Positions 6,268 to 40,855 of a DNA stretch of 40,855 nt are shown piece after piece. Position 1 is the stretch's first letter, and each line of letters begins with the position of its first letter. The notes below the pieces were generated by a model, which saw only the letters and a list, made by a program, of their open reading frames with translations, searched no databases and was not told where the DNA came from. The DNA is from Longimicrobiaceae bacterium (lineage in GTDB: Bacteria > Gemmatimonadota > Gemmatimonadetes > Longimicrobiales > Longimicrobiaceae), in contig JBPCIT010000265.1 of assembly GCA_051006015.1 (NCBI GenBank), positions 1 to 40,855 of the forward strand, read 5' to 3'. The position numbers and the translations under genes were made by a program.

Positions 6268-6893
6268 TCCCGCGCGAGAAGCTCGGCTGGCGATATCCAC
6301 TGTCCGAGCGGCAACTGCACCCCCTGCCAGGTGACCAGCTCGTCCACCGGGGTTGGCCCGCCGATCCGGACGGCCGCGATGCTTCTCAGCCCCTGAACAT
6401 GGTCTGGGGAGAGCCAGCTGTTGACGGTCGGATCCCACACCTCGACGCCGCTCTCAGAGAAAACCGCACATGCCTCATGGTATGCCAGACCGTCGCCCGC
6501 CCATTCCGGCGAGGCGTTGCCGGTCATCCACCACCCGTGGAAGTGAGGAAGGTGGTGGCGCTCCTGGCGCTGCACGAGCTGCACAGGTAGGACCCGGCGG
6601 GAGTACGCGCTGAACGCCTCGATCGTCAGCGCCGCGTGGGCGCCGCAGTCGAGCTCTTCGGCATCCAGGGCGTCGCACCAGTGCAGCGGCCAGCGCGTCG
6701 GACCCCAGGGGAAGCGCTGCGCGATCCACCCCGGGCCGCCCTGCCCTCGCCACATCGAGCGGTTCATCGCCATGAACCAGCTGCGCGCGGTCGTACAGCA
6801 ATCGGCGCCATGATGCGTGAGAGTCGAGGGCACCCATGCCTCCCAGGGTGCCCAGGACTGAACTCGTGTCGGCTCAGCAACAAGCATCTTCAA
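6264..6893 (-). CDS. hypothetical Trp-rich protein, possibly with a transglutaminase-like / papain-like Cys-His-Asp core.
   Basis: 209-aa ORF in the operon between the ATP-grasp/decarboxylase fusion and the esterase. Candidate triad context: LDCGAHAAL, HFHGWW, VWDPTV (TGase-like cores often show a C in G-x-C, an H followed by aromatics, and a D in DPT). Weak and unverified. Confidence 0.5.
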   Translation of the reverse strand: MKMLVAEPTRVQSWAPWEAWVPSTLTHHGADCCTTARSWFMAMNRSMWRGQGGPGWIAQRFPWGPTRWPLHWCDALDAEELDCGAHAALTIEAFSAYSRRVLPVQLVQRQERHHLPHFHGWWMTGNASPEWAGDGLAYHEACAVFSESGVEVWDPTVNSWLSPDHVQGLRSIAAVRIGGPTPVDELVTWQGVQLPLGQWISPAELLARE

Positions 6894-9159
6894 GTACTCC
6901 CCTGCCGAAGTTGTAGGCCATGCTGGCGTCGTAGGCGCCAGCGTCTCCGATCACCAAGCAGTCACCCGGCCGGAGCGATTCCGGCACCGCCAGATCCGTG
7001 GCCAGGATGTCCGTCTCCATGCAGATCCGCCCGAGCAGTCGATCGGATCCGCCTCCAAGCACCTCCCACTCGCCGCCCGTGGAGCGGCCGTACACGCGGT
7101 GCGGATAGAAGGACGCCATCGGTAGGTCCGATATCGCCGCGTCCACGACAACCTCGGCTCCGCCTTTCTCGTGCTTGCGCACCTCCAGCACGGTGGTGAC
7201 CAGCGCCATCGTCGGCTGTGCGACCGCCTTGCCGGGCTCGACGAAGAATCGTTGCAGCCCCGGAAGGGTCTCGGCCGCGGCTCCGACCAACTCTTCCAGC
7301 CGGGGCAACAGCTCCGCATCGAAGTCGTCGGGGAACCACCCGCCACCCGAATCGAGGCAGCGCACCGGTCGGCCCACTCCCTGCTCGATCGCGTGCGCCC
7401 AGTGGATCACGCTCTGGAACACCTCCCGCCAGCGTGAGGGGCCGATCACATCGCTGGCGAAATGGAAGTGCACCCCGATCTCCTGCTCGGGCGGAAGCTC
7501 CTTCAGCAGGGCGAGCGTCTCGGCGAAGCGGCTGGGTGTGTCCATCGTCGCGCCGAAGCGCGACGGGACGGTCACGGGCCGCAGCCGGATGCCGAGGTAG
7601 CGGGCCGCGGGAGCGCCCTCGCACATCCAGCGCGCGAAGCTCTGCGGGGAGTCGGCGAACGCGGCCATCAACGCACCGTCGGGCGCCGGGCCGAATGGCC
7701 AGTGCTGGGCGGGGCCGTTCAGAATGATGCGCTCGGCGGGAAAGCCGGCGGCGAGGGCGTGCTGCATCTCCGCGCGGCTGATCACCTCGGCGAACATCCC
7801 GGCCTCCTCCGCGAGCGCGACCAGAGTCGGGTGGGGGTTGGTCTTGATGCTGTAGCCGAAGCCGAGCTCGACGCCCAGCGGGAACTCGGCGGTGGCGCGC
7901 TCGATCTGAGCGAAGCGCGCGCGGGTCGTGTGCGGCAGAAGAATGCGGCGTGGTGTGGCGGAGTCACCAACCAGAGCGCTCGCCAGGTCCTTTTCCACCG
8001 TGACCGGCATCGGCGCCGGCGCTCGGCGGGGCTTCTCCTGCTCAGGCCGTCCGCCGTTCTTGCGGGCTGCGTCCAGCCGCCGCGCCAGGTCAGGCATTCC
8101 CGAGGGGTGCTTCGAGCCGACCTGCCATTCGTCCAGCGGAGCTTTGACGGCGGGCAGCGGATACTGCGGATGCACCGGGATCTCCACGACGACGCGGGTG
8201 AACTGGGCGGCTCGGAAGGGCACCGCCGCCGCCGTTCCGAAACCCGCCGCCTCGACGACCCGCGCCGGGAGGTTGTGCCCCGCGAAGCTCGCGGCGTGGA
8301 TCCAGGCGGGGAACCGGGGGTTCCAGTCGATCAACTGGAGGGTGCCGTCCACGGCGCGCACGAACTCCAGCTCCCCACCGCCCGTCCACTCCAGCTCGGC
8401 GACCACCTCGCGCAGCGGCTCGACGATCGCGGGGTCAGCCGCGGAGACGCGTCCGGCCCACGTCTTCCCCTCCGCCGTCTGCGTCTGCTTGCGCATGTGA
8501 ACGCAGTCGAGCAGCTCGCCCTGATAGGCGCAGAAGGCGAACGACTCCTCGGTACCGAGCACATGCCGCTGCACGAATACCTTCTCGGTGCTCCAGGTGT
8601 CGGAGAGCACAGTGCGGGCGTTGCGGAACGAGGGCCAGTCACGTACGCGCATCGCCTCGTAGTTCGGACCCTTCACCCATACACGCCACCCATGCTGACG
8701 ACAGAAGCTGTGCAGCTCCCAGTCGGAGCGGTCCACCGAGATGAACTCCGGGATCACGAAGGGCAGCTTTCGCGCAGCCTCGATCGACGGTTTGGCGACC
8801 TGCGCAAGCGCGCCCGCCGGTGGAAGGAAGGCCCGGCTGCTGTCGGTGAGCGCGCCAGCCAGCCAATCGACCTCCAGATCCTGCCCCGCGAACCAGAGTG
8901 CCCCCGCGTCGAGGACCGACTGGATCGCCGCCTGATAAAGGGGAAGCTGAAGCTCCTTCCACGGACGCTGCAGCCAGATGTCGTCGAAGACGTCGCTGTG
9001 CAGCCCGGAGCTCTCTACGGAGTAGTCGACCGCGACGAGGTGAGCGTGGGGAAAGGCCTGCCGGAGGGAGAGTGCCACCCCGAGCCCGGGTGAGGGGTTG
9101 GGACCGCTGTGCACACCGCTGAGATAACACGTAAGTCGGCCATCGGCTTCTGCTCGCAT
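6874..9159 (-). CDS. fusion protein: N-terminal ATP-grasp carboxylate-amine ligase domain joined to a C-terminal fold-type-III PLP-dependent decarboxylase (Orn/DAP/Arg decarboxylase family) domain.
   Basis: 761-aa ORF. ATP-grasp hallmarks in the N-half: a CYLSG...GPNP Rossmann-like pre-domain, central VKGPNYEA / VQRHVLGTEESF, and GGELEFVRAVDGTLQLIDWNPRF (E-x-N-P-R). The C-half (from about residue 400) matches DAP-decarboxylase-type motifs: GFGYSIKTNPHP (PLP lysine), AERIILNGP, LDSGGGWF, EPGKAVA, and C-terminal VIGDAGAYDASMAYNFGRG. Confidence 0.85.
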   Translation of the reverse strand: MRAEADGRLTCYLSGVHSGPNPSPGLGVALSLRQAFPHAHLVAVDYSVESSGLHSDVFDDIWLQRPWKELQLPLYQAAIQSVLDAGALWFAGQDLEVDWLAGALTDSSRAFLPPAGALAQVAKPSIEAARKLPFVIPEFISVDRSDWELHSFCRQHGWRVWVKGPNYEAMRVRDWPSFRNARTVLSDTWSTEKVFVQRHVLGTEESFAFCAYQGELLDCVHMRKQTQTAEGKTWAGRVSAADPAIVEPLREVVAELEWTGGGELEFVRAVDGTLQLIDWNPRFPAWIHAASFAGHNLPARVVEAAGFGTAAAVPFRAAQFTRVVVEIPVHPQYPLPAVKAPLDEWQVGSKHPSGMPDLARRLDAARKNGGRPEQEKPRRAPAPMPVTVEKDLASALVGDSATPRRILLPHTTRARFAQIERATAEFPLGVELGFGYSIKTNPHPTLVALAEEAGMFAEVISRAEMQHALAAGFPAERIILNGPAQHWPFGPAPDGALMAAFADSPQSFARWMCEGAPAARYLGIRLRPVTVPSRFGATMDTPSRFAETLALLKELPPEQEIGVHFHFASDVIGPSRWREVFQSVIHWAHAIEQGVGRPVRCLDSGGGWFPDDFDAELLPRLEELVGAAAETLPGLQRFFVEPGKAVAQPTMALVTTVLEVRKHEKGGAEVVVDAAISDLPMASFYPHRVYGRSTGGEWEVLGGGSDRLLGRICMETDILATDLAVPESLRPGDCLVIGDAGAYDASMAYNFGRGVLEDACC

Positions 9160-9306: not shown

Positions 9307-9864
9307 TTACAAGGAGAGCGCCATGACCTGGCGCGGGATCTCCGGCGCATCCGGCGCTCGCGAAGCCTGGATCGCCTGGATCCAGCGCGGTGGCGAGGAC
9401 AGGTTCACGGGCGCCACGATCGTGAACCCCTGGCGTTGCAGCGGAGCCCAGCGGATCGGCGGGGCGACACACCAGATGGTGCGGCACCCGATCTCTCTCG
9501 CCTTGCGGATGCGAATCTGGTCCAGCGCATGACTCAGCCCGCGGCGCTGATACTCCGGATGCACGACCAGCCGGTTGAGAGACGCGATTGGAGCGGGTGG
9601 ATCGATTCCCACCCCGATGAAGAACCCGGCATCCGGCAGCGATCGCACGTCGTCATGCACACACATGCGCGCCGCGGCGATCAACCGGCCCCCATCGCGC
9701 ACCACCCAGTGCATGGCGTGCTCGTCATGCTCGTCCTCGCACACATCGGCCGGGAAACTGCCGTCCCGAAGCACACCAACCGACTTCCACGACTCGATCC
9801 GCAGGCCGAAGACGACCTCCCGCAGGAGATCCGTTTCCCCTGGCTGGATGAGCTGCGGCATCAT
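9307..9864 (-). CDS. GNAT-family N-acetyltransferase.
   Basis: 185-aa ORF. Motif A LVVHPEYQRRGLSHAL (Q/R-x-x-G-x-G/A-like CoA-binding). Same strand as the ATP-grasp/decarboxylase gene and 147 bp upstream of it. Confidence 0.75.
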   Translation of the reverse strand: MMPQLIQPGETDLLREVVFGLRIESWKSVGVLRDGSFPADVCEDEHDEHAMHWVVRDGGRLIAAARMCVHDDVRSLPDAGFFIGVGIDPPAPIASLNRLVVHPEYQRRGLSHALDQIRIRKAREIGCRTIWCVAPPIRWAPLQRQGFTIVAPVNLSSPPRWIQAIQASRAPDAPEIPRQVMALSL

Positions 9865-10258
9865 GCCCGAAACTCCGCGGTGACCCTAACGGCACGGTTG
9901 CACTCCGTGCGTCCTGCCGCGCCCGTGCTCATTCCATCATTGATCGGGCGGGGCACGGGCATACTCGCTCGCCATGATTAACGATCCGCCGGCCCCCAAC
10001 GAGGCGCGTAGGAGAACGCAAGTACAAGGCCACGTTTGTTTCCTTCGGGAGTGCCGCTACCCGGAAGGCGTCGCGCGGAGAAAAGAAGCGTTCTGCGCGT
10101 GGTCTGACGATCGACGAGCTCAGCTACTGGCTGGTGTGGTGGGTGGGGCAGGAGTGCGCGTCTACTTTGGCAGAGTGGCGTCGTCGGATGACATGCACGG
10201 CGAGGGTGGAACGCGGCTGACACGCGTGTATCGAGCGGTCCTGCCGAACCCGGATCGG

Positions 10259-32159: not shown

Positions 32160-35100
32160 TTACGGTTGCTTCCTACGACGCGGCAGCCAGACGCGGAAGG
32201 TGCTCCCCCGGCCGAGCTCACTCTCGACCTCGACGTCGCCGCCGAGCAGCCGGCTGAACTCCCGGGCTGCCGCAAGCCCGATCCCCATGCCGCCGAATGC
32301 GCGGGTCGTGGCGTTGTCGGCCCGCCAGAATCGCTCGAAGATGTGGGCCTGGTCCTCGGGCGCGATTCCGATGCCCGTATCGCGGACCTCGAAGACAACC
32401 CGCTCCCCCTCCGCTCGTACCTCCAAATTGATCTCTCCGCGCTCAGTATACCTGACGGCGTTGCCGCACAGGTTGACGAGGATCTGGCGGGCCTTGTCGG
32501 CATCCATATCCAGCTCGACGGCCTCGTCTGGAAGGCTCAGGACCAGCGCGAGATCCTTTGCCTCCGCACTGGGCTCGACCAGCACCTTTGCCTCGCGCGC
32601 GATCATTCTCGCGTCCACCTTCTCGTACCGCACCGTCTCGCAACCCTCGTCCAGCTTTGCGAAGGTGAGGATCTCGTCGATCATGGAGGCGAGATGCCAG
32701 CCGCACACCTTGATCCGCTCGATCTTTTCCACCTGCGGTGTCGTGAGCGGCCCATCGAGGTCGAGTAGCTCGGAATAGCCGAGCATCGCAGTGAGCGGGG
32801 TACGGAATTCGTGCGACATCGTCGCCAGAAAGCTCCCCTTGAGCAGGTTCGCCGATTCGGCCGCGATCTTCGCCTCCCGCAGCTCCTCCTGGACCCGCCG
32901 TCGCGCGGTGTTGTCGACGAAGGTGAGCACGGCGCCATCGATCTCGCCCTCGGCGTAACGGTACGGGTTGATGCGGAGGATGTACCACTCGCCGGCGTCG
33001 CTCGACACCTCACGCTCGATCCGCTCCTGCGAGGTGAGCACGCTCTGCGCATCGGCGACCAGGTCGGGGTAGTCGAGCCGGTGGGTGATGTGGGCGAGCG
33101 GACGGCCCTGGTCCGTGGCGACGAAGTTGAAGAGCGTCGCGACCGACGGGGTGAACCGCCGGATCCGCATCGCGCGGTCGAGAAAGATGGTGCCGATCTC
33201 CGTGGATTCGATCAGGTTCTGGAGATCGGCGTTCGTCCGCTTCAGCTCCTCGATCGAGCTCTGGTGCTCCTGGTTGATGGTGGTGAGCTCCTCGTTGATG
33301 GACTGGATCTCCTCGCGGCTGGTCTCCAGCTCCTCGGCCGCCGCCTTCTGCTCCTCGTTGACCGACAGCAGCTCCTGGTTGGCCGACTGGAGCTCCTCCA
33401 CCGTCCGATCGCGCGCCGCGATAGTGGATTCGAGCTGCTCCTCGATCCGACGCAGCTCCTCCTCCGGGCGGGCGACCGCTCGCGGGGGGGGGGGATCCTG
33501 CAGCGCCTCTCCCTCGGCCGCCGGCTCGGTCTCAAGCAGCGCCTCTTCCTCGAAGAGGACCAGGGCGAACCTACCCGCTCTCTCGTCTCCTACCGGTGGG
33601 TTCACCCGCAGGCATAGCGGGGCACCGCCGTTGAGGCGGAGGTGGCGGGTGGTCGGCAGCCCCTTCGCAAAGGCCTGGTAGAGCGCCGTGCGCAGCTCCA
33701 TTCGCAGCTCGGGCGGGGCCAGGTCCATCAGGTCGTGGCTCGGCTCGCCCTCCGCCAGGTGCAGGTAGTCGCCGGCCCGGCCGGAGAGGTGGACCACCTC
33801 GAGCCGCTCGTCCACGACCAGGCTCGCCGGCGCGTAATGCTCGAGCATCCGCAGATGGACCGGCCCGTACGCGAACCGGTGCGGGCGGGACATCTCGATG
33901 GCATCCGCCGGTCGGCCGCCGGGCCGGGAAGGCGGATCCGCGGCCGAGAGCCGCGGCAGGACCCGGTGCGGGGTGGCGTTGCGGCGGTAGATCCGCGACG
34001 CCCGCGCGACGGGCACGAAGCGCCCGCTCTCCCCCGCCGACTCCGCCGAGCCGAGGAAGAGCAGCCCCTGCGACCGCAGCGCATAGTGGAAGGTCGCGAT
34101 CGCCTGTTCCTGAGCCGCCGGCTGGAGGTAGATGAGCAGGTTCCGGCAGCTGATCAGGTCGAGCCGCGAGAAGGGTGGGTCGTGCAACACGTTGTGGACG
34201 GCGAAGAGCACTCCCTCGCGCAGCGGCTTCTTGATCCGGTAGCCTCCCGCCTCCTGGGTGAAGTAGCGGCGGAGCCGCTCGGGCGGGATCTCCGCCACGG
34301 CAGAGGCCGGGTAGATGGCCGCGCGGCCCCGCGCGTAGCCCTTCTCGTCGATGTCGGTGGCGAAGATCTGGATCTGCGGCGGGTGCTCCAGGGTGGCCGC
34401 GTGCTCGTTCGACAGGATGGCGATCGAGTAGGCCTCCTCGCCCGTGGCGCACCCCACCACCCAGACACGCACCGCGTCATCCGGTCCCTTGCCCTCGAAG
34501 AGCGCAGGAATCGCCTCCGCCAGCGCGCTGAACGCCTCCGGATCCCGGAAAAAGGAGCTCACCGAGATCAGCAGGTCCCGCACGAGCGCCCGGGCCTCGG
34601 TCTCACTCGCCCGCAGCATCGGCAGATAGTCCTCGAGGGTCGCCGCACCATTGAAGCGCAGCCGCCGCTCGAGCCGGCGCAGGATGGTGGAGGGCTTGTA
34701 CAGGCTGAAGTCGTGGCCGGTCTTGCCACGCAGTACGGCGAAGATCTGGGCCAGCTGCGCCTGGGTGTCCCCGGGAGGCGAGTCGACCTCGAGGGGCGAC
34801 GGCATCCGCCGGAGGCGAAGCAACTCGGCGGGGACCCGCGCCGACGGTAGCACCAGGTCGATCTGCCCGGTCGCGATCGCGCTCTCCGGCATCCCGTCGT
34901 ACTCGGCTTCGTCCGGCGACTGGGCGACCGTGATGCCACCGCACTCCTTGATGTGCCGGGTCCCCGACGCGCCGTCGCTGCCGGTGCCGGAGAGCACAAC
35001 GCCGACCGCATCCGGTCCGCACGCCTCGGCGAGTGTGCGGAAGAAAAGGTCGATGGGCGAATGCTGCGGTCCGTCGCCGCGCTCCTGCAGGCGGAGGGTC

Positions 35101-35501
35101 GCGTCCTGTATCGTGAGGTCGTGGCCCGGCGGGATGATGTAGATGTGGTCGGGCTCCACCGTCGTCGTCCCGGTGACCTGCGTCACAGGGACCGAAGTCC
35201 GGTCCTGCAGGAGCGCGGCGATGCGGCTCTCCCGCTCCGGGTCCAGGTGCATGATCACCACGTATGCCATGCCGCTGTCGGCCCGCACCGACTGGAAGAA
35301 GAGCTGCAGCGCCTTCAGCCCGCCCGCCGAGGCACCGATCCCCACGACCGTCAGCGGGCCCCGATCTCCTACATCGGGGCTGCTAGCCTGTTCGGGAAGG
35401 ACCGCCTGAGTCATGGCTGCCTCGAAGGAAGTGAGGGCCGCTCGCGCGGCCGAGGCCAACGGTGACCATCGATCAGAAGGCGCTCCACTTCGGAGAACCA
35501 T
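32160..35501 (-). CDS. multidomain chemosensory fusion: CheB-type methylesterase + CheR-type methyltransferase + coiled-coil/PAS + histidine kinase (HisKA + HATPase_c). Start possibly at the ATG at 35414.
   Basis: GIGASAGGLKAL...YVVIMHLDP (CheB catalytic domain); VRVWVVGCATGEEAYSIAIL (CheR SAM-binding); long heptad region (ELQSANQELLSVNEEQKAAAEELETSREEIQSINEEL); FLATMSHEFRTPLTAM (H-box); LVNLCGNAVRYT, VRDTGIGI, GGMGIGLAAAREF (N, G1, G2 boxes). Confidence 0.9.
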   Translation of the reverse strand: MVLRSGAPSDRWSPLASAARAALTSFEAAMTQAVLPEQASSPDVGDRGPLTVVGIGASAGGLKALQLFFQSVRADSGMAYVVIMHLDPERESRIAALLQDRTSVPVTQVTGTTTVEPDHIYIIPPGHDLTIQDATLRLQERGDGPQHSPIDLFFRTLAEACGPDAVGVVLSGTGSDGASGTRHIKECGGITVAQSPDEAEYDGMPESAIATGQIDLVLPSARVPAELLRLRRMPSPLEVDSPPGDTQAQLAQIFAVLRGKTGHDFSLYKPSTILRRLERRLRFNGAATLEDYLPMLRASETEARALVRDLLISVSSFFRDPEAFSALAEAIPALFEGKGPDDAVRVWVVGCATGEEAYSIAILSNEHAATLEHPPQIQIFATDIDEKGYARGRAAIYPASAVAEIPPERLRRYFTQEAGGYRIKKPLREGVLFAVHNVLHDPPFSRLDLISCRNLLIYLQPAAQEQAIATFHYALRSQGLLFLGSAESAGESGRFVPVARASRIYRRNATPHRVLPRLSAADPPSRPGGRPADAIEMSRPHRFAYGPVHLRMLEHYAPASLVVDERLEVVHLSGRAGDYLHLAEGEPSHDLMDLAPPELRMELRTALYQAFAKGLPTTRHLRLNGGAPLCLRVNPPVGDERAGRFALVLFEEEALLETEPAAEGEALQDPPPPRAVARPEEELRRIEEQLESTIAARDRTVEELQSANQELLSVNEEQKAAAEELETSREEIQSINEELTTINQEHQSSIEELKRTNADLQNLIESTEIGTIFLDRAMRIRRFTPSVATLFNFVATDQGRPLAHITHRLDYPDLVADAQSVLTSQERIEREVSSDAGEWYILRINPYRYAEGEIDGAVLTFVDNTARRRVQEELREAKIAAESANLLKGSFLATMSHEFRTPLTAMLGYSELLDLDGPLTTPQVEKIERIKVCGWHLASMIDEILTFAKLDEGCETVRYEKVDARMIAREAKVLVEPSAEAKDLALVLSLPDEAVELDMDADKARQILVNLCGNAVRYTERGEINLEVRAEGERVVFEVRDTGIGIAPEDQAHIFERFWRADNATTRAFGGMGIGLAAAREFSRLLGGDVEVESELGRGSTFRVWLPRRRKQP

Positions 35502-35556
35502 GCCAATCGGAACCGACGCGGCTGCGCAGCAGCGGGGTGCGAGGGCTTCCCATCTA

Positions 35557-35604
35557 TTGACCGGATGGTAAATACAAGCTAGCTTAGATTGTCCAGATGG
35601 TCAA
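35557..35604. promoter_or_regulatory. large imperfect palindrome with two copies of the TTGACC-N4-GGTCAA-type operator (TTGACC-GGAT-GGTAAA and TTGTCC-AGAT-GGTCAA) flanking a perfect AAGCTAGCTT core. Lies in the divergent region between the CheBR-kinase gene and a small secreted-protein gene.
   Basis: Sequence ATTGACCGGATGGTAAATACAAGCTAGCTTAGATTGTCCAGATGGTCAATGATTG. The half-sites match the operator at 30461-30485. Confidence 0.5.
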
Positions 35605-35731
35605 TGATTGCAGCAGAGGCATCAGCAGGAGAGAATTCCCCACGTTGATGCAAATGCGCTGGACCGCTGAGATGCTGGGGTGGGAAGCACTCCGCTTTCC
35701 GTCCGCCGTACCTCACCAAGGGGGAGACATC

Positions 35732-36016
35732 ATGCGTTCCATGCTCATTGTCGGGCTTCTGTTCACTCTGGCCACGGTGCCCGCCGTGCAGGCGCAACAG
35801 GTAGCAGTTCCGGCTTCGGCAGAGCAACCCGCTCCGCGCGTCGTAGAGGTTACGATGCCCAGGACCGAGGTGGATCTGACCCCGGCTCGGGCCGCGGCGG
35901 TTCAGTCCAGGGAGGCAGTCACGGCGGAGGCCGCGCGGGAGATGAGCGCACGCACCCTCCTTGCAGTCATTGGGGCGGCCCTGGTTGTGGTAGCCCTGGT
36001 CGTGTTACTAAACTGA
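35732..36016 (+). CDS. small exported/membrane-anchored protein (N-terminal signal peptide, C-terminal hydrophobic anchor), hypothetical.
   Basis: 94 aa from the ATG at 35732 (MRSMLIVGLLFTLATVPAVQAQQ... ending LLAVIGAALVVVALVVLLN), with GGGGGAG 5 nt upstream. The track ORF start at 35597 lies inside the operator and is probably spurious. Confidence 0.5.
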   Translation: MRSMLIVGLLFTLATVPAVQAQQVAVPASAEQPAPRVVEVTMPRTEVDLTPARAAAVQSREAVTAEAAREMSARTLLAVIGAALVVVALVVLLN

Positions 36017-36306
36017 TCGCTGGCGGCGGCGCTGGCGTTCGCCACCAGCACCACCCTGCCGCGGAACGCGGCCGCACTGCCCGCACTGACATTGAACCAC
36101 CACCCCAAGATGCGAGAGAGACCCACTCTGCGGCCCCACGAACCAGGTGAGGCGCCCGGGGGGGTGGTGGCGCGTGCGCTCACGATCCTCGAGGAAGAGA
36201 CGCGGGCGTGGACGGCGTTGCGCGAGCACCGGTTGGCACGCTCGCGTGAGGCGGTGCGGTCCGGTGAAGCGGCGGAATCGGACCCCGATGGTTCGCGGAG
36301 TGCACC

Positions 36307-39300
36307 ATGATCTGCTCGCGCTGCGGCCGGGAGAACGTGCGGTCGGCCCGCTTCTGCAACAACTGCGGAGGCGACCTGGGGCCGACGTGCCCGCACTGCG
36401 GTTTCGAGAATCCACCTGAATCGAAGTTCTGTGGCGGCTGCGGCCACCGTCTGCAGGAGGTGCACGCGTCGGAGGCGGAGGGCGAGCGCCGGCAGATCAC
36501 GGTGCTCTTCTGCGACCTGGTAGGCTCGACGGAACTCTCTCAGCAGCTCGACCCGGAGGACCTGCGCGATGTCATCGCGGCGTACCAGAGTGTCTGCGGC
36601 GAAGCGGTGGCGGCCCACGAAGGATATGTCGCGCAGTACCTCGGCGACGGCATCATCGTCTACTTCGGCTACCCGCGTGCCCAGGAAGACGATGCCCAGC
36701 GCGCCGTTCGCTGCGGGCTGGACATGCTGCGGCGGGTGCAGGTGGTCGCGGCGCAGATACGCAAGGACGTCACCCTGGCCGTGCGCGTCGCCGTGCACAC
36801 GGGGCGGGTCGTGGTGGGGCCGGTGGGCGCGGGCGACCGCCAGGACCGGATCGCGCTGGGCGACGCACCCAACATCGCCGCGCGACTGCAGGGGGTGGCG
36901 GAGCCCGGCACGCTGGTCGTGAGCGACGCGACCTGGGGCATCGTGAGCGGCTACTTTACCGGCCGCTCCATCGGCGAGGTGCAGCTCAAAGGCATAGCCC
37001 AGCCGATGGAGGTGTGGCTAATCGACGGCGAGACGGCATGGCGCGACCGCCTCGATGCGGCCGGCAGGCTGGCTCCCTTCGTCGGCCGCGAGCGAGAGCG
37101 ACGCCTCCTCGAGGAAGCCTGGCAGGCGGCGCAGCGGGGCGAGACGGGTTTCATCCTGCTGCGTGCGGATGCGGGCGTGGGCAAGTCGCGGCTCGGTCGG
37201 CTCTTTCGTGATCAGGCCGAGGCCTCCGGTGCGGCGGTGCTGGTGGCCCGGGCTTCCCCCTATAACAGCGACAGCCCGTTCTACCCGATCATCGAGCTGC
37301 TCGCGCAGCGGTTCGGTCTCGAACCGGGGCAGTCGGCGGACGAACAGCTGGCACGCCTCGAGGGCGCGCTCCGCGAGCTGCATCTGGACCCGGCCGTGGT
37401 CGTACCCTTCCTGGCGCCGCTGCTGGCCATCCCCGCCGGCGACCGCTACGCGGCTCCGGATCTCTCGCCCATACGGCGCCGCGCCCGGACCATGGAGGTG
37501 ATCGCCCATTTGTTCGGCGCCCTGGCCGAACAGACGCCGACGCTGCTGGTATTCGAGGACCTGCACTGGGCCGACACCTCGACCGCGGAGCTGCTCGAGC
37601 TGATCGTCGATACGCTGTCCGGCGTTCCGTTGCTGGGCCTGATCGCGGCGCGGCCGGATCTCGACGCATCCTGGGGCAAGGGCACCCGCCTGCAGTGCCT
37701 CGATCTGACGAAGCTGGACCCGGCACAGGCGGAGGCGCTCGCGCAGAGCGTCGCGGGCGGCAAGGCGCTGCCCGGCAAGGTGCTGCGGCAGATCGTGGCG
37801 CGCTCGGACGGCGTGCCGCTCTTCATCGAGGAGATGACGCGGGCCGTGCTCGAGTCGGGCGTGCTCCGCGAAGGCGCGGCAGCGTGGGAAGCGCGAGGGC
37901 CGGTGCCGGAGGATCTGATCCCGGCGACCGTGGCCGCGTCGCTGACCGCGCGCATCGACCGGCTCGGCACCTCGCGCGCCACCGCGCAGCTGGCCGCGAC
38001 CATCGGCCGCGAGTTCGGCTTCGCACTGCTGCGCGAGGTGAGCGAGCGCGACGAGCCGACCCTCCGCCAGGACATCAAGCGGCTAACGGACGCAGGCCTG
38101 GCGTGGGCAACAGACGAGTCAGGTGCCGGCACCTTCATGTTCAAGCACGCGCTGGTGCGCGACGCGGCCTACGAATCGCTGCTGCGCGCCACCCGCCAGA
38201 GCTATCATAGCCGCATCGCTGCCGCGATGCGCAGCAACATGGCCCAGTTCGCGGCGGAGCGGCCCGACCTGATCGCGCACCACCTGACCCAAGCCGGCGA
38301 GTACCAGGATGCGGTGGGCTTCTGGGAGACCGCCGGCCAGCAGGCGCTGCAGAGGTCGGCCATGCACGATGCGAGCGTCGACTTCCAGCGGGCGATCGGC
38401 TGCCTGAGCAACCTGCCCACGACGCGCGAACACCGGGAGCACGAGCTGGAACTGCAGCTCCAGCTCGCCCCGGTGCTCATGGCAGTGTATGGGTGGGCAG
38501 CGGTGCAAGTCGAGGAATCGTGCGAACGCGGCCGCGCGCTGGCGGAGGAGCTCGAGCGCTACGACCGCATCTACCCGCCGCTCTGGGGCCTCTGGACCGT
38601 CTACTTCCTGCGCGGTGAGCTCGAGCCGGCCATGTCTGCAGCCGAGGCGGTGCAGCGGATGGCGGAGGCTTCCGGGGTACCGATGATCCAGATTACAGGT
38701 CGCCATGCCACGGCCTATACGCTGCTCTACCGAGGCGAGATCGAGCGGGCGCTCGAAGAGGCGAACGCCGGTCTGGCGCTCTTCGATTTCGAACAGGAGA
38801 AGGCGCTGACCAGTATGTTCCAGCTCTCCTCGTCCGTCTGCCTGCGCACGGTGAGAGCGCATGCGCTCTCGATGCTGGGGCACGTCGCCGAGGCAGAGGC
38901 GGAGTGGGAGCGTATGGTGCAGCTCGCCCGGGATCTGCAGCACCTGCCCACCCTGGCCGCCGCGCTCGCCTTCTTCCTGCACGGCTACGGCTACCGCCAC
39001 TCGCACCTCCACCGGATCGAGCGGCTGTGCGAGGTCGCGGACGAGCTGCGCAGCCTGTGCAAGGACGAGGGGTTCTTGCTCTGGCTCGCGGTCGCGGAGA
39101 ACTATCGCGGCGTGATCGGGCTCGCCCTCGGCGAGGAGGATGCCCGCACCCGCATGCAGGAAGGCCTCGAGCTCTTCCTTCAGACCGGGACCCGCGTCAC
39201 CCTCGTGCTCGTGTACGTGATGATGGCCGAAGCGCTGTACGAGCTGCACGAGGACGAGGAAGCCTTCCGATTGCTGGACGAGGCCGAGGCGGAGATGGAG

Positions 39301-39600
39301 GCGCGCGGAGAGCGGCTGAACGCGCCCGAGATCTGGCGGGTACGCGGCCGCCTGCTGGCCCGGCGCGGCGACGCCGCCGCGGCCGAGGCGGCCTACCGCC
39401 ACGCGCTGCACTTCGCCGGCCAGCAGAAGGCGCGCTCCCTCGAGTTGCGCGCCGCGCTCGACCTGTACGACCTGCTGGCCACGAACGGGCGCGTCGAGGA
39501 AGGCCGTGCCCGACTCGCGGCTAGCCTCGATTCCCTCCCGGAGGGACTGGACCGCCCGGAACCGGCACGCGCGCTCGCCATCTTGGGTGGGTCCTCCTGA
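36307..39600 (+). CDS. signalling STAND protein: N-terminal double zinc ribbon + class III adenylate/guanylate cyclase domain + AAA/NB-ARC-like NTPase + C-terminal TPR-like helical repeats.
   Basis: CSRCGREN...CNNCGG...CPHCGFEN...CGGCGH (two ribbons); ITVLFCDLVGSTELS, AVHTGRVVVGPVG (cyclase homology domain, metal-binding Asp and transition-state residues); LLRADAGVGKSRL (Walker A) and LLVFEDLHWAD (Walker B); about 450-aa helical repeat C-terminal region. No HTH seen. Confidence 0.85.
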   Translation: MICSRCGRENVRSARFCNNCGGDLGPTCPHCGFENPPESKFCGGCGHRLQEVHASEAEGERRQITVLFCDLVGSTELSQQLDPEDLRDVIAAYQSVCGEAVAAHEGYVAQYLGDGIIVYFGYPRAQEDDAQRAVRCGLDMLRRVQVVAAQIRKDVTLAVRVAVHTGRVVVGPVGAGDRQDRIALGDAPNIAARLQGVAEPGTLVVSDATWGIVSGYFTGRSIGEVQLKGIAQPMEVWLIDGETAWRDRLDAAGRLAPFVGRERERRLLEEAWQAAQRGETGFILLRADAGVGKSRLGRLFRDQAEASGAAVLVARASPYNSDSPFYPIIELLAQRFGLEPGQSADEQLARLEGALRELHLDPAVVVPFLAPLLAIPAGDRYAAPDLSPIRRRARTMEVIAHLFGALAEQTPTLLVFEDLHWADTSTAELLELIVDTLSGVPLLGLIAARPDLDASWGKGTRLQCLDLTKLDPAQAEALAQSVAGGKALPGKVLRQIVARSDGVPLFIEEMTRAVLESGVLREGAAAWEARGPVPEDLIPATVAASLTARIDRLGTSRATAQLAATIGREFGFALLREVSERDEPTLRQDIKRLTDAGLAWATDESGAGTFMFKHALVRDAAYESLLRATRQSYHSRIAAAMRSNMAQFAAERPDLIAHHLTQAGEYQDAVGFWETAGQQALQRSAMHDASVDFQRAIGCLSNLPTTREHREHELELQLQLAPVLMAVYGWAAVQVEESCERGRALAEELERYDRIYPPLWGLWTVYFLRGELEPAMSAAEAVQRMAEASGVPMIQITGRHATAYTLLYRGEIERALEEANAGLALFDFEQEKALTSMFQLSSSVCLRTVRAHALSMLGHVAEAEAEWERMVQLARDLQHLPTLAAALAFFLHGYGYRHSHLHRIERLCEVADELRSLCKDEGFLLWLAVAENYRGVIGLALGEEDARTRMQEGLELFLQTGTRVTLVLVYVMMAEALYELHEDEEAFRLLDEAEAEMEARGERLNAPEIWRVRGRLLARRGDAAAAEAAYRHALHFAGQQKARSLELRAALDLYDLLATNGRVEEGRARLAASLDSLPEGLDRPEPARALAILGGSS

Positions 39601-39629
39601 CATTCCCCTACAGCGACTGGAGACGCCGT

Positions 39630-40553
39630 ATGTCTGACGACACCGCTCGCCTCCCCTGGTCCACCGAGCAATGGGCGGCGCTCCGCTCGGTGGTCCAGGA
39701 GTCCGCCCGCAAGGCACGGGTCGCGAGTTCGTTTCTGCCGCTGTACGGGCCGCTGCCGCGCGACCAGGTGACGGTGCCGGCACTCACCATGGAAAGCCCG
39801 GAGCTCGGCGACCGCCAGCGGGGCGAGCCACCCGCGCGCCTCGAGATCAACGACGCCGAGACGCTGCGCCTGACGACGATCGCCGCTGATGTGTACCTCA
39901 AGACGGCCGAGGCGGCCGACCCCGATCTGGAAGCGGCCAAGGCGATGGTGGGCCGGGCCGCGGACGTGCTCGGCCGGCTCGAGGACGCGATCGTCTTCAA
40001 CGGCCAGCCGGAGGCCGCACAGGCGCCCGTCCGGGAGGATGGCTCGCCCTTCGTCGTGCCGGTGATCTACACGGTGCGCGGCGGCCAGCAGCATCCGGGT
40101 CTGCTCGATACTGAGCTCGAGGTGGCGGTGCCCTTCCGCGAGCTGGACGGACGGAGCGAGACGCTGGTGAGCGGGGTCGTCGAAGCGATCGAGATGCTCG
40201 AGGGCCGGGGTCACTATGGCCCGTTCGCGTGCGTGCTGGGGCACGAGCTCTTCCTGGCCGCCAACACGCCGAACCGCAACTCGCTGGTGCTGCCCAGCGA
40301 CCGCATCCTGCCCTTCCTGGAGGGGCCGCTCCTGCGCTCGAGCACCCTCCCGGCGAACCTTGGGGTGGTGGTGGCGCTCTCCGGCTCGCCGATCGACCTG
40401 GTGGTCGCCACGGATCTGGACGTACAGTTCGTTCAGCTCACGCTCGAGCCGCGCTACGTGCTGCGGGTATCGGAGCGCTTCGTCCTGCGCATGAAGGAGC
40501 CGGACGCCGTCTGCCGGCTAGTGGCGGAGCCTGCCTCCGGCGACCGGGGCTAG
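39630..40553 (+). CDS. encapsulin nanocompartment shell protein (family 1, Linocin_M18 / HK97-fold).
   Basis: 307-aa ORF. N-terminal LPWSTEQWAALRSVVQESARKARVASSFLPLYGPL matches the conserved encapsulin N-terminal helix pattern (L-T-E-x-W-x-x-I-D...A-R-x-x-L-V-G-R-x-F). C-terminal half aligns in pattern with Thermotoga/Mycobacterium encapsulins (ILPFLEGPLLRS...DLVVATDLDVQFVQLTLEPRYVLRVSERFVLR). No phage structural genes nearby. Confidence 0.8.
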   Translation: MSDDTARLPWSTEQWAALRSVVQESARKARVASSFLPLYGPLPRDQVTVPALTMESPELGDRQRGEPPARLEINDAETLRLTTIAADVYLKTAEAADPDLEAAKAMVGRAADVLGRLEDAIVFNGQPEAAQAPVREDGSPFVVPVIYTVRGGQQHPGLLDTELEVAVPFRELDGRSETLVSGVVEAIEMLEGRGHYGPFACVLGHELFLAANTPNRNSLVLPSDRILPFLEGPLLRSSTLPANLGVVVALSGSPIDLVVATDLDVQFVQLTLEPRYVLRVSERFVLRMKEPDAVCRLVAEPASGDRG

Positions 40554-40556
40554 GCG

Positions 40557-40855
40557 ATGCGCACGCCGCGCGGCCGCCTGACCGCAGCAGCCCTGGCTCC
40601 CGCCGCGCTGCTGGAGAGCAGCAACCTGCCCCTGCCCACAGGCTCGACACCTGCCGGAAGCAGCCCGGCGCTCGTGGTCGGCGCGGTGCCGCCTCACCCG
40701 AGCAACGTCGTCGAGGTGCTGCTGCGCCGCGACGGCGGACGGGTACGCGCTCTCCGCGCCGGTCGCGAGCCGGCTTCCGCGCCGGGCGCGACGCCCGGTG
40801 ACGCGCAGTGGTTCCGGACGCTGCTGCCGCCGCTGCGCCCGGGAAGCCGCGACGA
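40557..40855 (+). CDS. hypothetical protein, 3' truncated by the window end; translationally coupled to the encapsulin gene (3-bp gap).
   Basis: Open frame from the ATG at 40557 to the window end (MRTPRGRLTAAALAPAALLESSNLPLPTGSTPAGSS...). Not in the ORF track because no stop is reached. Pro/Ala-rich, no motif. Confidence 0.4.
   Translation, partial: MRTPRGRLTAAALAPAALLESSNLPLPTGSTPAGSSPALVVGAVPPHPSNVVEVLLRRDGGRVRALRAGREPASAPGATPGDAQWFRTLLPPLRPGSRD

Follow-up and report, generated by a model that had tools for sequence, protein, structure and literature searches.

Organisation of the locus

The 40,855-nucleotide (nt) contig JBPCIT010000265.1 of a Longimicrobiaceae bacterium (Gemmatimonadota; assembly GCA_051006015.1), analysed over its whole length and referred to here as the window, closes with three consecutive genes on the forward strand (Table 1). 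These encode a large protein combining a nucleotide cyclase, a STAND NTPase and a TPR region (cyclase-STAND-TPR protein), an encapsulin shell protein, and the N-terminal part of a protein whose relatives carry a DUF3237 domain. An initial annotation of the bare sequence had described a family-1 encapsulin without canonical cargo, set between a zinc-ribbon/cyclase/NTPase/TPR protein and an unrecognised Pro/Ala-rich open reading frame (ORF). The ORF listing places the genes where that annotation had put them, and the downstream ORF does start 3 nt past the shell stop codon and run off the window, while the gap between the cyclase and shell genes, given as 30 bp, is in fact 29 nt. No terminator-like site was found in 35400–40855, and the absence of a terminator between the cyclase and shell genes fits their co-transcription. 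Read together with relatives that extend further downstream, the region probably represents the 5' portion of a conserved operon of four genes, whose products would form a protein nanocompartment dedicated to isoprenoid chemistry.

A divergent family-1 encapsulin shell

The shell protein is a true family-1-type encapsulin of a divergent clade. It matches the Pfam family Linocin_M18 (PF04454) with 69.9 bits (E 2.5e-19), well above the gathering score of 24.3, and the NCBIfam model NF041155 (encap_f1) with 91.2 bits, slightly below the curated cut-off of 100. The AlphaFold2 model, with a predicted local distance difference test score (pLDDT) of 91 and a predicted template modelling score of 0.88, contains the N-terminal helix typical of family 1 (residues 12–29), and a Foldseek search of the PDB gives only family-1 encapsulins among its top 50 matches, headed by M. 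xanthus EncA (E 2e-20), with no phage capsid among them. EncA is also the best match (E 2e-26) when a hidden Markov model of 28 shell relatives is compared with solved structures, followed by the shells of Q. thermotolerans and B. methanolicus. The original assignment to family 1, made from the N-terminal helix and the HK97 fold, is thus borne out by Pfam, AlphaFold2 and Foldseek alike. Membership of family 2 is not indicated, as the protein matches family 1 only and has no insertion for binding cyclic nucleotide monophosphates (cNMPs).

The clade is large, with at least 120 clusters at 90% identity (E<1e-88) and, at 50% identity, 169 clusters at E<=1e-30 or 460 at E<=1e-10. Three long proteins, P0401 (927 aa), P0433 (708 aa) and P0436 (460 aa), match the shell in their C-terminal part and may be fusions or gene-calling artefacts.

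A conserved cassette beyond the window

The genes that follow the window's last base can be read in a Gemmatimonadetes metagenome-assembled genome (MAG) whose shell is 99% identical to that of the window (L010), in metagenome contigs at 87% shell identity (L003–L006) and in a Gemmatimonadaceae MAG at 59% (L007). There the cut ORF extends to a protein of some 300 aa with a DUF3237 domain (PF11578) in its C-terminal half, as read directly in L010 and L003. It is followed by a fourth gene, which overlaps it by 8 nt in L003 and encodes a fusion of about 980 aa between a flavin adenine dinucleotide (FAD)-dependent amine-oxidase-like domain (PF01593, PF13450) and a polyprenyl synthase (PF00348).

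A shell-profile scan with one genome per species yielded 23 loci, which were compared by tblastn with the window and L003 proteins and through their called genes. Every locus with enough flank contains the cyclase-STAND, shell, DUF3237, oxidoreductase and prenyl synthase genes, in the same order and on a common strand apart from a few variants: the STAND gene is present as two tandem copies in an Acidimicrobiia MAG (L026:3351-9964) and in Ca. Nitrospira neomarina (L035:115-7237), the DUF3237 gene precedes the shell gene in L035, and the STAND and DUF3237 genes lie on the opposite strand in the rearranged L039. Shell, DUF3237, oxidoreductase and synthase occur together in 26 loci, plus 3 more. 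Six of the loci were reached through homologues of the oxidoreductase (those of Ca. Nitrospira neomarina, Roseicella aquatilis and Tabrizicola sp. J26, and three on metagenome contigs), and each of them carries this gene set. The cassette is found in seven phyla (Gemmatimonadota, Actinomycetota, Chloroflexota, Myxococcota, Acidobacteriota, Pseudomonadota and Nitrospirota), a recurrence that rules out chance adjacency; judged from this co-localisation in all related loci with enough flank, both neighbours of the shell gene are functionally tied to it. The synteny of STAND-cyclase and encapsulin that the initial annotation proposed to survey thus holds in every locus with enough flank. Its observation that no classical cargo gene is present also stands, as neither the window nor any of about 30 homologous loci holds a gene for DyP, a ferritin-like protein, rubrerythrin or hemerythrin, and the same loci contain no phage genes. 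Its fallback, that homologous loci might carry a standard cargo lost only here, finds no example among them.

Apart from cNMP-binding proteins, clustering of the ORFs around the cassette recovered only cassette genes and shadow ORFs. Small ORFs without a Pfam match (110–213 aa) flank the shell gene in some loci where oxidoreductase and synthase are separate genes (L035:9272-9742; L038:6794-7435 and 8490-9107; L039:7886-8512 and 9574-9906) and could be extra cargo or shell accessories. The genes that follow the cassette point to hydrophobic compounds being handled. In Nitrospira (L035:13195-15328) they encode a NUDIX hydrolase and a FadL-like Toluene_X porin, and in L003 (6053-10578) an ABC-2 transporter, an LVIVD-repeat protein and a protein with a signal peptide; these FadL-like, NUDIX and ABC-2 genes fit, weakly, the export of a hydrophobic product.

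An oxidoreductase with a conserved C-terminal peptide

The best cargo candidate is the product of the fourth gene, a putative assignment that draws on the anatomy of its homologues. Oxidoreductase and synthase are separate genes in L027, L029 and L030, where the oxidoreductase ends in a tail of 60–100 aa. A search with the L029 protein returned thousands of homologues; the best 120 are all standalone proteins of 584–739 aa, and at least 111 of these 120 carry a conserved C-terminal peptide, [G/P/R][R/K][L/I/V]R[I/V][V/T][Q/P][K/R], followed by 0–1 residues (up to 3 in a few). The preceding tail is variable, rich in Pro, Ala, Ser and Gly and 30–170 aa long. A strict regular expression for the peptide matches 69 of the 120 C-termini and nothing in the remaining 78,265 residues, and in the split loci L035 and L036 the peptide is found on the oxidoreductase only. 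An enzyme core, a flexible linker and a short conserved terminal peptide in which hydrophobic and basic residues alternate make up the anatomy of family-1 cargo, and for this reason we take the oxidoreductase to be the cargo and read its peptide as a non-canonical class of targeting peptide that would anchor the enzyme on the inside of the shell. Known family-1 peptides are of the type NTGGDLGIRK and PLTVGSLRRGG, with the consensus DGSLGIGSLKG (PMC7925596). Searches for canonical peptides with the expressions [LIV]x[LIV]G[ST][LIV] and GSL[KR] in the four proteins of 22 loci gave single chance matches only.

The possibility of a new cargo or docking partner had been raised from the outset, with the downstream ORF and the signalling protein as the two candidates. 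The expectation of an unconventional cargo is retained here, while the fourth gene is preferred to the DUF3237 ORF and the tail of the signalling protein no longer qualifies (see below). A comparison of shells from split-gene and fused-gene loci was tried as a sign of shell-peptide co-evolution and abandoned, as the six columns that differ (S33A, Q46T, S223R, A249S, D256E and L278F) are too few and confounded by phylogeny.

The prenyl synthase domain, encoded outside the window, matches PF00348 with 201 bits, above the gathering score, and has both Asp-rich motifs (DDIED and DDVLN) in L003 and L007. Its nearest solved structures are the geranylgeranyl diphosphate (GGPP) synthases 1wmw and 1wy0, and its best NCBIfam model is NF041169, 'family 2 encapsulin cargo polyprenyl transferase', at 194.6 bits, far below the cut-off of 450. 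The synthase is presumably co-localised with the oxidoreductase, by fusion or, where the genes are split, by complex formation.

The DUF3237 protein

The downstream ORF, which the initial annotation rightly saw as tightly coupled to the shell gene, is no longer an unknown Pro/Ala-rich protein: it encodes an Ig-like domain followed by a DUF3237 barrel. The L003 orthologue matches PF11578 with 78.4 bits, above the gathering score of 24. In the AlphaFold2 model (pLDDT 87) an Ig-like sandwich (residues 12–122) is joined to the barrel (154–307) by a disordered linker (126–145), and the window holds only the N-terminal 99 residues, which end before the barrel. Foldseek matches of the barrel include 3g7g and 3c5o (E 2e-09), 4pux, and PhnH (6jjs, E 4e-05, and 6jjt). 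The Ig-like domain is missing in Ilumatobacteraceae loci, and no conserved terminal peptide was found on the protein. An N-terminal motif, LLERxxLPLPxG, considered as a targeting peptide shared with an 'LPTG' linker motif, was rejected: it forms an ordered Ig-like strand with a pLDDT of about 90.

Among characterised members of the family, PhnH cyclises a prenylated phenalenone through hydroalkoxylation (PMC11969235), and PhcF and PhcG are cofactor-free decarboxylases (PMC9942872). The cassette protein has the same barrel fold as these enzymes at about 20% sequence identity, and differs from them in its additional N-terminal Ig-like domain.

The cyclase-STAND-TPR protein and a proposed cyclic-nucleotide link

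The domains first proposed for the large upstream protein are all recovered: a double zinc ribbon (residues 1–50; DZR/Zn_Ribbon_1), a class III nucleotide cyclase (62–240; Guanylate_cyc, E 6e-22), an AAA_16 STAND NTPase (257–442; E 3e-24) and a helical/TPR sensor region (about 640–1097), in which Pfam detects TPR_2 weakly. The protein reaches 549 bits against TIGR03903, a model for TOMM kinase/cyclase fusions with a cut-off of 705.75, aligns only to profile positions 278–1265 (cyclase, AAA and TPR) and lacks the kinase, and so falls outside that family. The cyclase and AAA_16 domains and TPR region are a core shared with TIGR03903 proteins, with a multi-domain cyclase of Sinorhizobium meliloti and with M. 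tuberculosis cyclases of the Rv0386 type. Differences from TIGR03903-type proteins are the lack of a kinase or LuxR domain and an N-terminus formed by a zinc ribbon or, in Roseicella, a SAM domain. The name of the TIGR03903 proteins, too, comes from a link to a gene cluster for a natural product.

The cyclase retains its catalytic residues, with two metal-binding Asp and the transition-state-stabilising Asn and Arg, and Gln occupies the substrate-specifying Lys position. M. tuberculosis Rv0386 similarly has Gln in place of this Lys. In ten loci from several phyla, the cassette has genes for cNMP-binding proteins no more than a few kb away, which encode either CRP/FNR regulators or Ser/Thr kinases that include a cNMP-binding domain. 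Together with the conserved catalytic residues, these neighbours support the regulatory link through cyclic nucleotides that had been suggested from the window.

The same cannot be said of the targeting peptide tentatively proposed at the extreme C-terminus of this protein (...PEPARALAILGGSS). The tail forms part of a motif, EGxDxPE/DxxxAxxh, that is kept among orthologues and also ends a paralogue on the S. meliloti plasmid pSymA, where no encapsulin is nearby; it is therefore a feature of the STAND-TPR family, not a targeting peptide.

A putative nanocompartment for isoprenoid chemistry

In the four-gene operon that we propose, the 307-aa shell protein would be expected to self-assemble into an icosahedral shell. 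Its cargo would be a FAD-dependent enzyme of the amine-oxidase/phytoene-desaturase superfamily, joined in the window's lineage by a flexible linker of about 100 aa to a short-chain trans-prenyl-diphosphate synthase of the farnesyl diphosphate (FPP) or GGPP type, and docked inside the shell, in split-gene relatives, by the peptide of its disordered tail. A hydrophobic or reactive intermediate of the isoprenoid pathway would then be kept inside the shell, possibly along with hydrogen peroxide. The DUF3237 enzyme would probably carry out a further step on the product, such as cyclisation or isomerisation, a role suggested by the known members of its family, which need no cofactor and use prenylated or hydrophobic aromatic substrates. 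The cyclase-STAND-TPR protein would serve as the dedicated sensor and regulator of the system, in which a signal sensed by the TPR/NTPase part switches on synthesis of a cNMP to be read by CRP-type or kinase-linked cNMP receptors. Whether the cassettes as a whole form a widespread family-1 nanoreactor class for oxidative isoprenoid chemistry, with a targeting-peptide class of its own (…R-L-R-I-V-Q-K) and an integral STAND-cyclase coupling expression or activity of the compartment to a cyclic nucleotide, is a bolder question, to which we would give slightly less than an even chance of a positive answer. More speculative is the idea that the TPR sensor of the STAND protein directly reads the shell, the cargo or the product.

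Gene identities, folds, synteny, the terminal peptide and the catalytic motifs are direct results of the analysis; encapsulation as such, the choice of protein loaded in the fused lineage, the chemistry and the signalling scheme are inferred from them. Several observations weigh against this proposal. The window contig ends before the fourth gene, whose presence in this genome is deduced from relatives, and the fused lineage, including the window's relatives, is without the C-terminal peptide; at the corresponding place, some 15 residues ahead of the synthase domain, only a weakly conserved island (hLPTGhPV) is seen. Where the peptide does occur it has no GSL core of the kind found in known family-1 targeting peptides (PMC7925596), and three oxidoreductases without a clear terminal peptide still lie beside shells with the full cassette present, so these cases are uninformative about a link between peptide and shell. 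Outside its FAD-binding motif the oxidoreductase bears only a weak resemblance to known enzymes (HpnE, phytoene desaturases), the position of the shell gene ahead of the cargo gene is unusual for family 1, and no cNMP receptor gene adjoins the cassette in the Gemmatimonadota loci.

Alternative explanations

The nearest competitor, itself unlikely in our estimate, makes the DUF3237 protein rather than the oxidoreductase the main cargo, or a shell-bound adaptor whose Ig-like domain docks to the shell. Its gene is the one most tightly coupled to the shell gene, with a spacer of 3 nt, and is present in all loci, and the extra N-terminal domain and disordered inter-domain linker of its product would suit such a role; yet the protein has no conserved terminal peptide, its LLERxxLPLPxG segment is an ordered strand, and the Ig-like domain is dispensed with in Ilumatobacteraceae. 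A docked DUF3237 protein would in any case be compatible with the four-gene nanocompartment and does not exclude it. We think it rather improbable that a classical enzyme, encoded at another site in the genome and bearing a canonical targeting peptide, is the real cargo, the neighbours being unrelated or merely co-regulated. Family 1 does have known examples of secondary cargo whose genes lie away from the operon (Andreas & Giessen 2021, PMC8346489), but here the co-localisation is strict across seven phyla and survives a rearrangement, the neighbouring oxidoreductase has a conserved C-terminal peptide, and none of about 30 loci contains a classical cargo gene. As for the cyclase-STAND-TPR protein serving as cargo or docking to the shell by way of its C-terminal tail, the strict synteny with the shell and the motif conserved among orthologues speak for it, but the recurrence of that motif in the encapsulin-less pSymA paralogue and the lack of either a canonical or an RLRIVQK-type peptide leave this with a very slim chance.

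It is very unlikely that the cassette is an anti-phage defence system of Pycsar-like or Avs-like type, with a STAND sensor and cyclase acting alongside a capsid-like protein. Defence systems often include STAND NTPases, genes for cNMP-binding proteins occur close to the cassette in some loci, and the cyclase domain matches PycC models in PADLOC at E 1e-20; these matches, however, reflect general class III cyclase homology, and the cassette contains no cNMP-activated transmembrane or TIR effector, which places it outside Pycsar. For the other three proteins PADLOC gives nothing but a generic FAD motif, the partners that stay constant are biosynthetic enzymes, and the surroundings are housekeeping genes rather than a defence island. 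That the shell gene is a remnant prophage major capsid gene, a possibility raised in the initial annotation, could appeal to the HK97 fold, but its chances are close to nil: the 50 best structural matches are encapsulins without exception, the family-1 N-terminal helix is present, and neither the window nor any of about 30 related loci contains portal, protease or terminase genes.

Relation to known encapsulin systems

The proposed nanocompartment is closest to the family-1 systems of M. xanthus (EncA with EncB/C/D), Thermotoga maritima and Quasibacillus thermotolerans, with which it shares the shell fold and N-terminal helix, EncA being the best match in both sequence and structure. The putative cargo of split-gene loci also resembles family-1 cargo in having a core, a flexible linker and a short C-terminal peptide with hydrophobic and basic residues (PMC7925596). 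It differs in its putative cargo, an FAD oxidoreductase with or without a prenyl synthase in place of DyP or ferritin-like proteins, in a peptide without the GSL core, in the position of the shell gene ahead of the cargo gene, in a shell score just under the NCBIfam cut-off, and in having a dedicated cyclase-STAND gene within the cassette. The terpenoid encapsulins of family 2B (the 2-methylisoborneol and geosmin synthase systems) likewise pair a shell with isoprenoid enzymes, and the best model for the prenyl synthase is that of a family 2 'polyprenyl transferase' cargo, though the match stays far below its cut-off; the shell here is nevertheless of family 1, without a cNMP-binding insertion, and no terpene cyclase is present. 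There is a thematic likeness in the link to cyclic nucleotides, made here by a cyclase gene and in family 2B by a cNMP-binding-fold insertion on the shell (PMC12746231), where cNMP binding by the 2-methylisoborneol shell was not detected (PMC12746231).

The 2021 census of encapsulins lists DyP, ferritin-like, hemerythrin, bacterioferritin and fusion systems in family 1, together with 90 unassigned 'Minor' systems, and assigns terpene and prenyl enzymes to family 2 alone (PMC8346489). The cassette operon was not seen in the accessible part of that paper's supplementary tables and could still sit among the 90 'Minor' systems. Full-text literature searches returned no link of encapsulins to DUF3237, to the cassette oxidoreductase or to adenylate cyclases, and a 2025 review mentions no such encapsulin system. 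In the literature searched, the four-gene cassette is thus undescribed: the shell family is known, and the putative cargo set and targeting peptide and the attached signalling enzyme are new.

Family-1 cargo has so far consisted mostly of peroxidases and iron-handling proteins, with terpenoid enzymes tied to family 2 shells. If the proposal is correct, the constant oxidoreductase, synthase and DUF3237 partners, the different peptide and the system's own cyclase-STAND control would broaden the known roles of encapsulins. They would offer a new orthogonal peptide-shell pair for engineering and a first handle on second-messenger regulation of a compartment, and this would be the first encapsulin operon with a dedicated signalling enzyme. 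The clade reaches at least 169 clusters at 50% identity in seven phyla, and the occurrence of the cassette in cultured isolates (Roseicella aquatilis and Tabrizicola sp. J26) makes the proposal directly testable.

Genomic context of the window

Table 1. Coordinates of the cassette features in the window
Feature	Position	Strand	Details
Cyclase-STAND-TPR protein	36307..39600	+	1097 aa; Pfam and NCBIfam (TIGR03903-like)
Spacer between cyclase and shell genes	39601..39629	+	29 nt; GGAG at 39619-39622, 7 nt before ATG
Encapsulin shell protein	39630..40553	+	307 aa; PF04454, NF041155, AlphaFold2, Foldseek
DUF3237 two-domain protein, 5' part	40557..40855	+	99 codons, cut by window end; full length in relatives about 300-311 aa

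The composition of the window is even, at about 68% GC, and the 36 kb upstream of the cassette consist of ordinary chromosomal housekeeping or regulatory genes. Probable genes there encode a tRNA synthetase, an ABC-F protein, a MatE protein, an SNF symporter, a glycosyltransferase, a CheB-CheR-PAS histidine kinase and a TetR regulator. The kinase gene (32160-35501, reverse strand) encodes a single polypeptide of 1113 aa that joins a CheB methylesterase, a CheR methyltransferase, PAS, HisKA and HATPase_c; it is divergent from the cyclase-STAND gene, about 800 bp upstream of it, and is not kept beside the cassette in other phyla. A 761-aa protein encoded at 6874-9159 on the reverse strand matches Orn/Arg/DAP decarboxylases in its C-terminal portion of about 340 aa only, and the N-terminal portion of about 400 aa has no Pfam match.

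Many long shadow ORFs overlie the real genes on both strands of 36000-40855, for example one of 554 aa at 38119-39783 on the reverse strand; they are expected at about 70% GC and are removed by filtering on GC content at third codon positions. An independent Logan assembly contig with an identical shell (L001) ends at the window's last base, inside the DUF3237 gene, and this shared contig end suggests a recurrent assembly break caused by a repeat or by strain variation.

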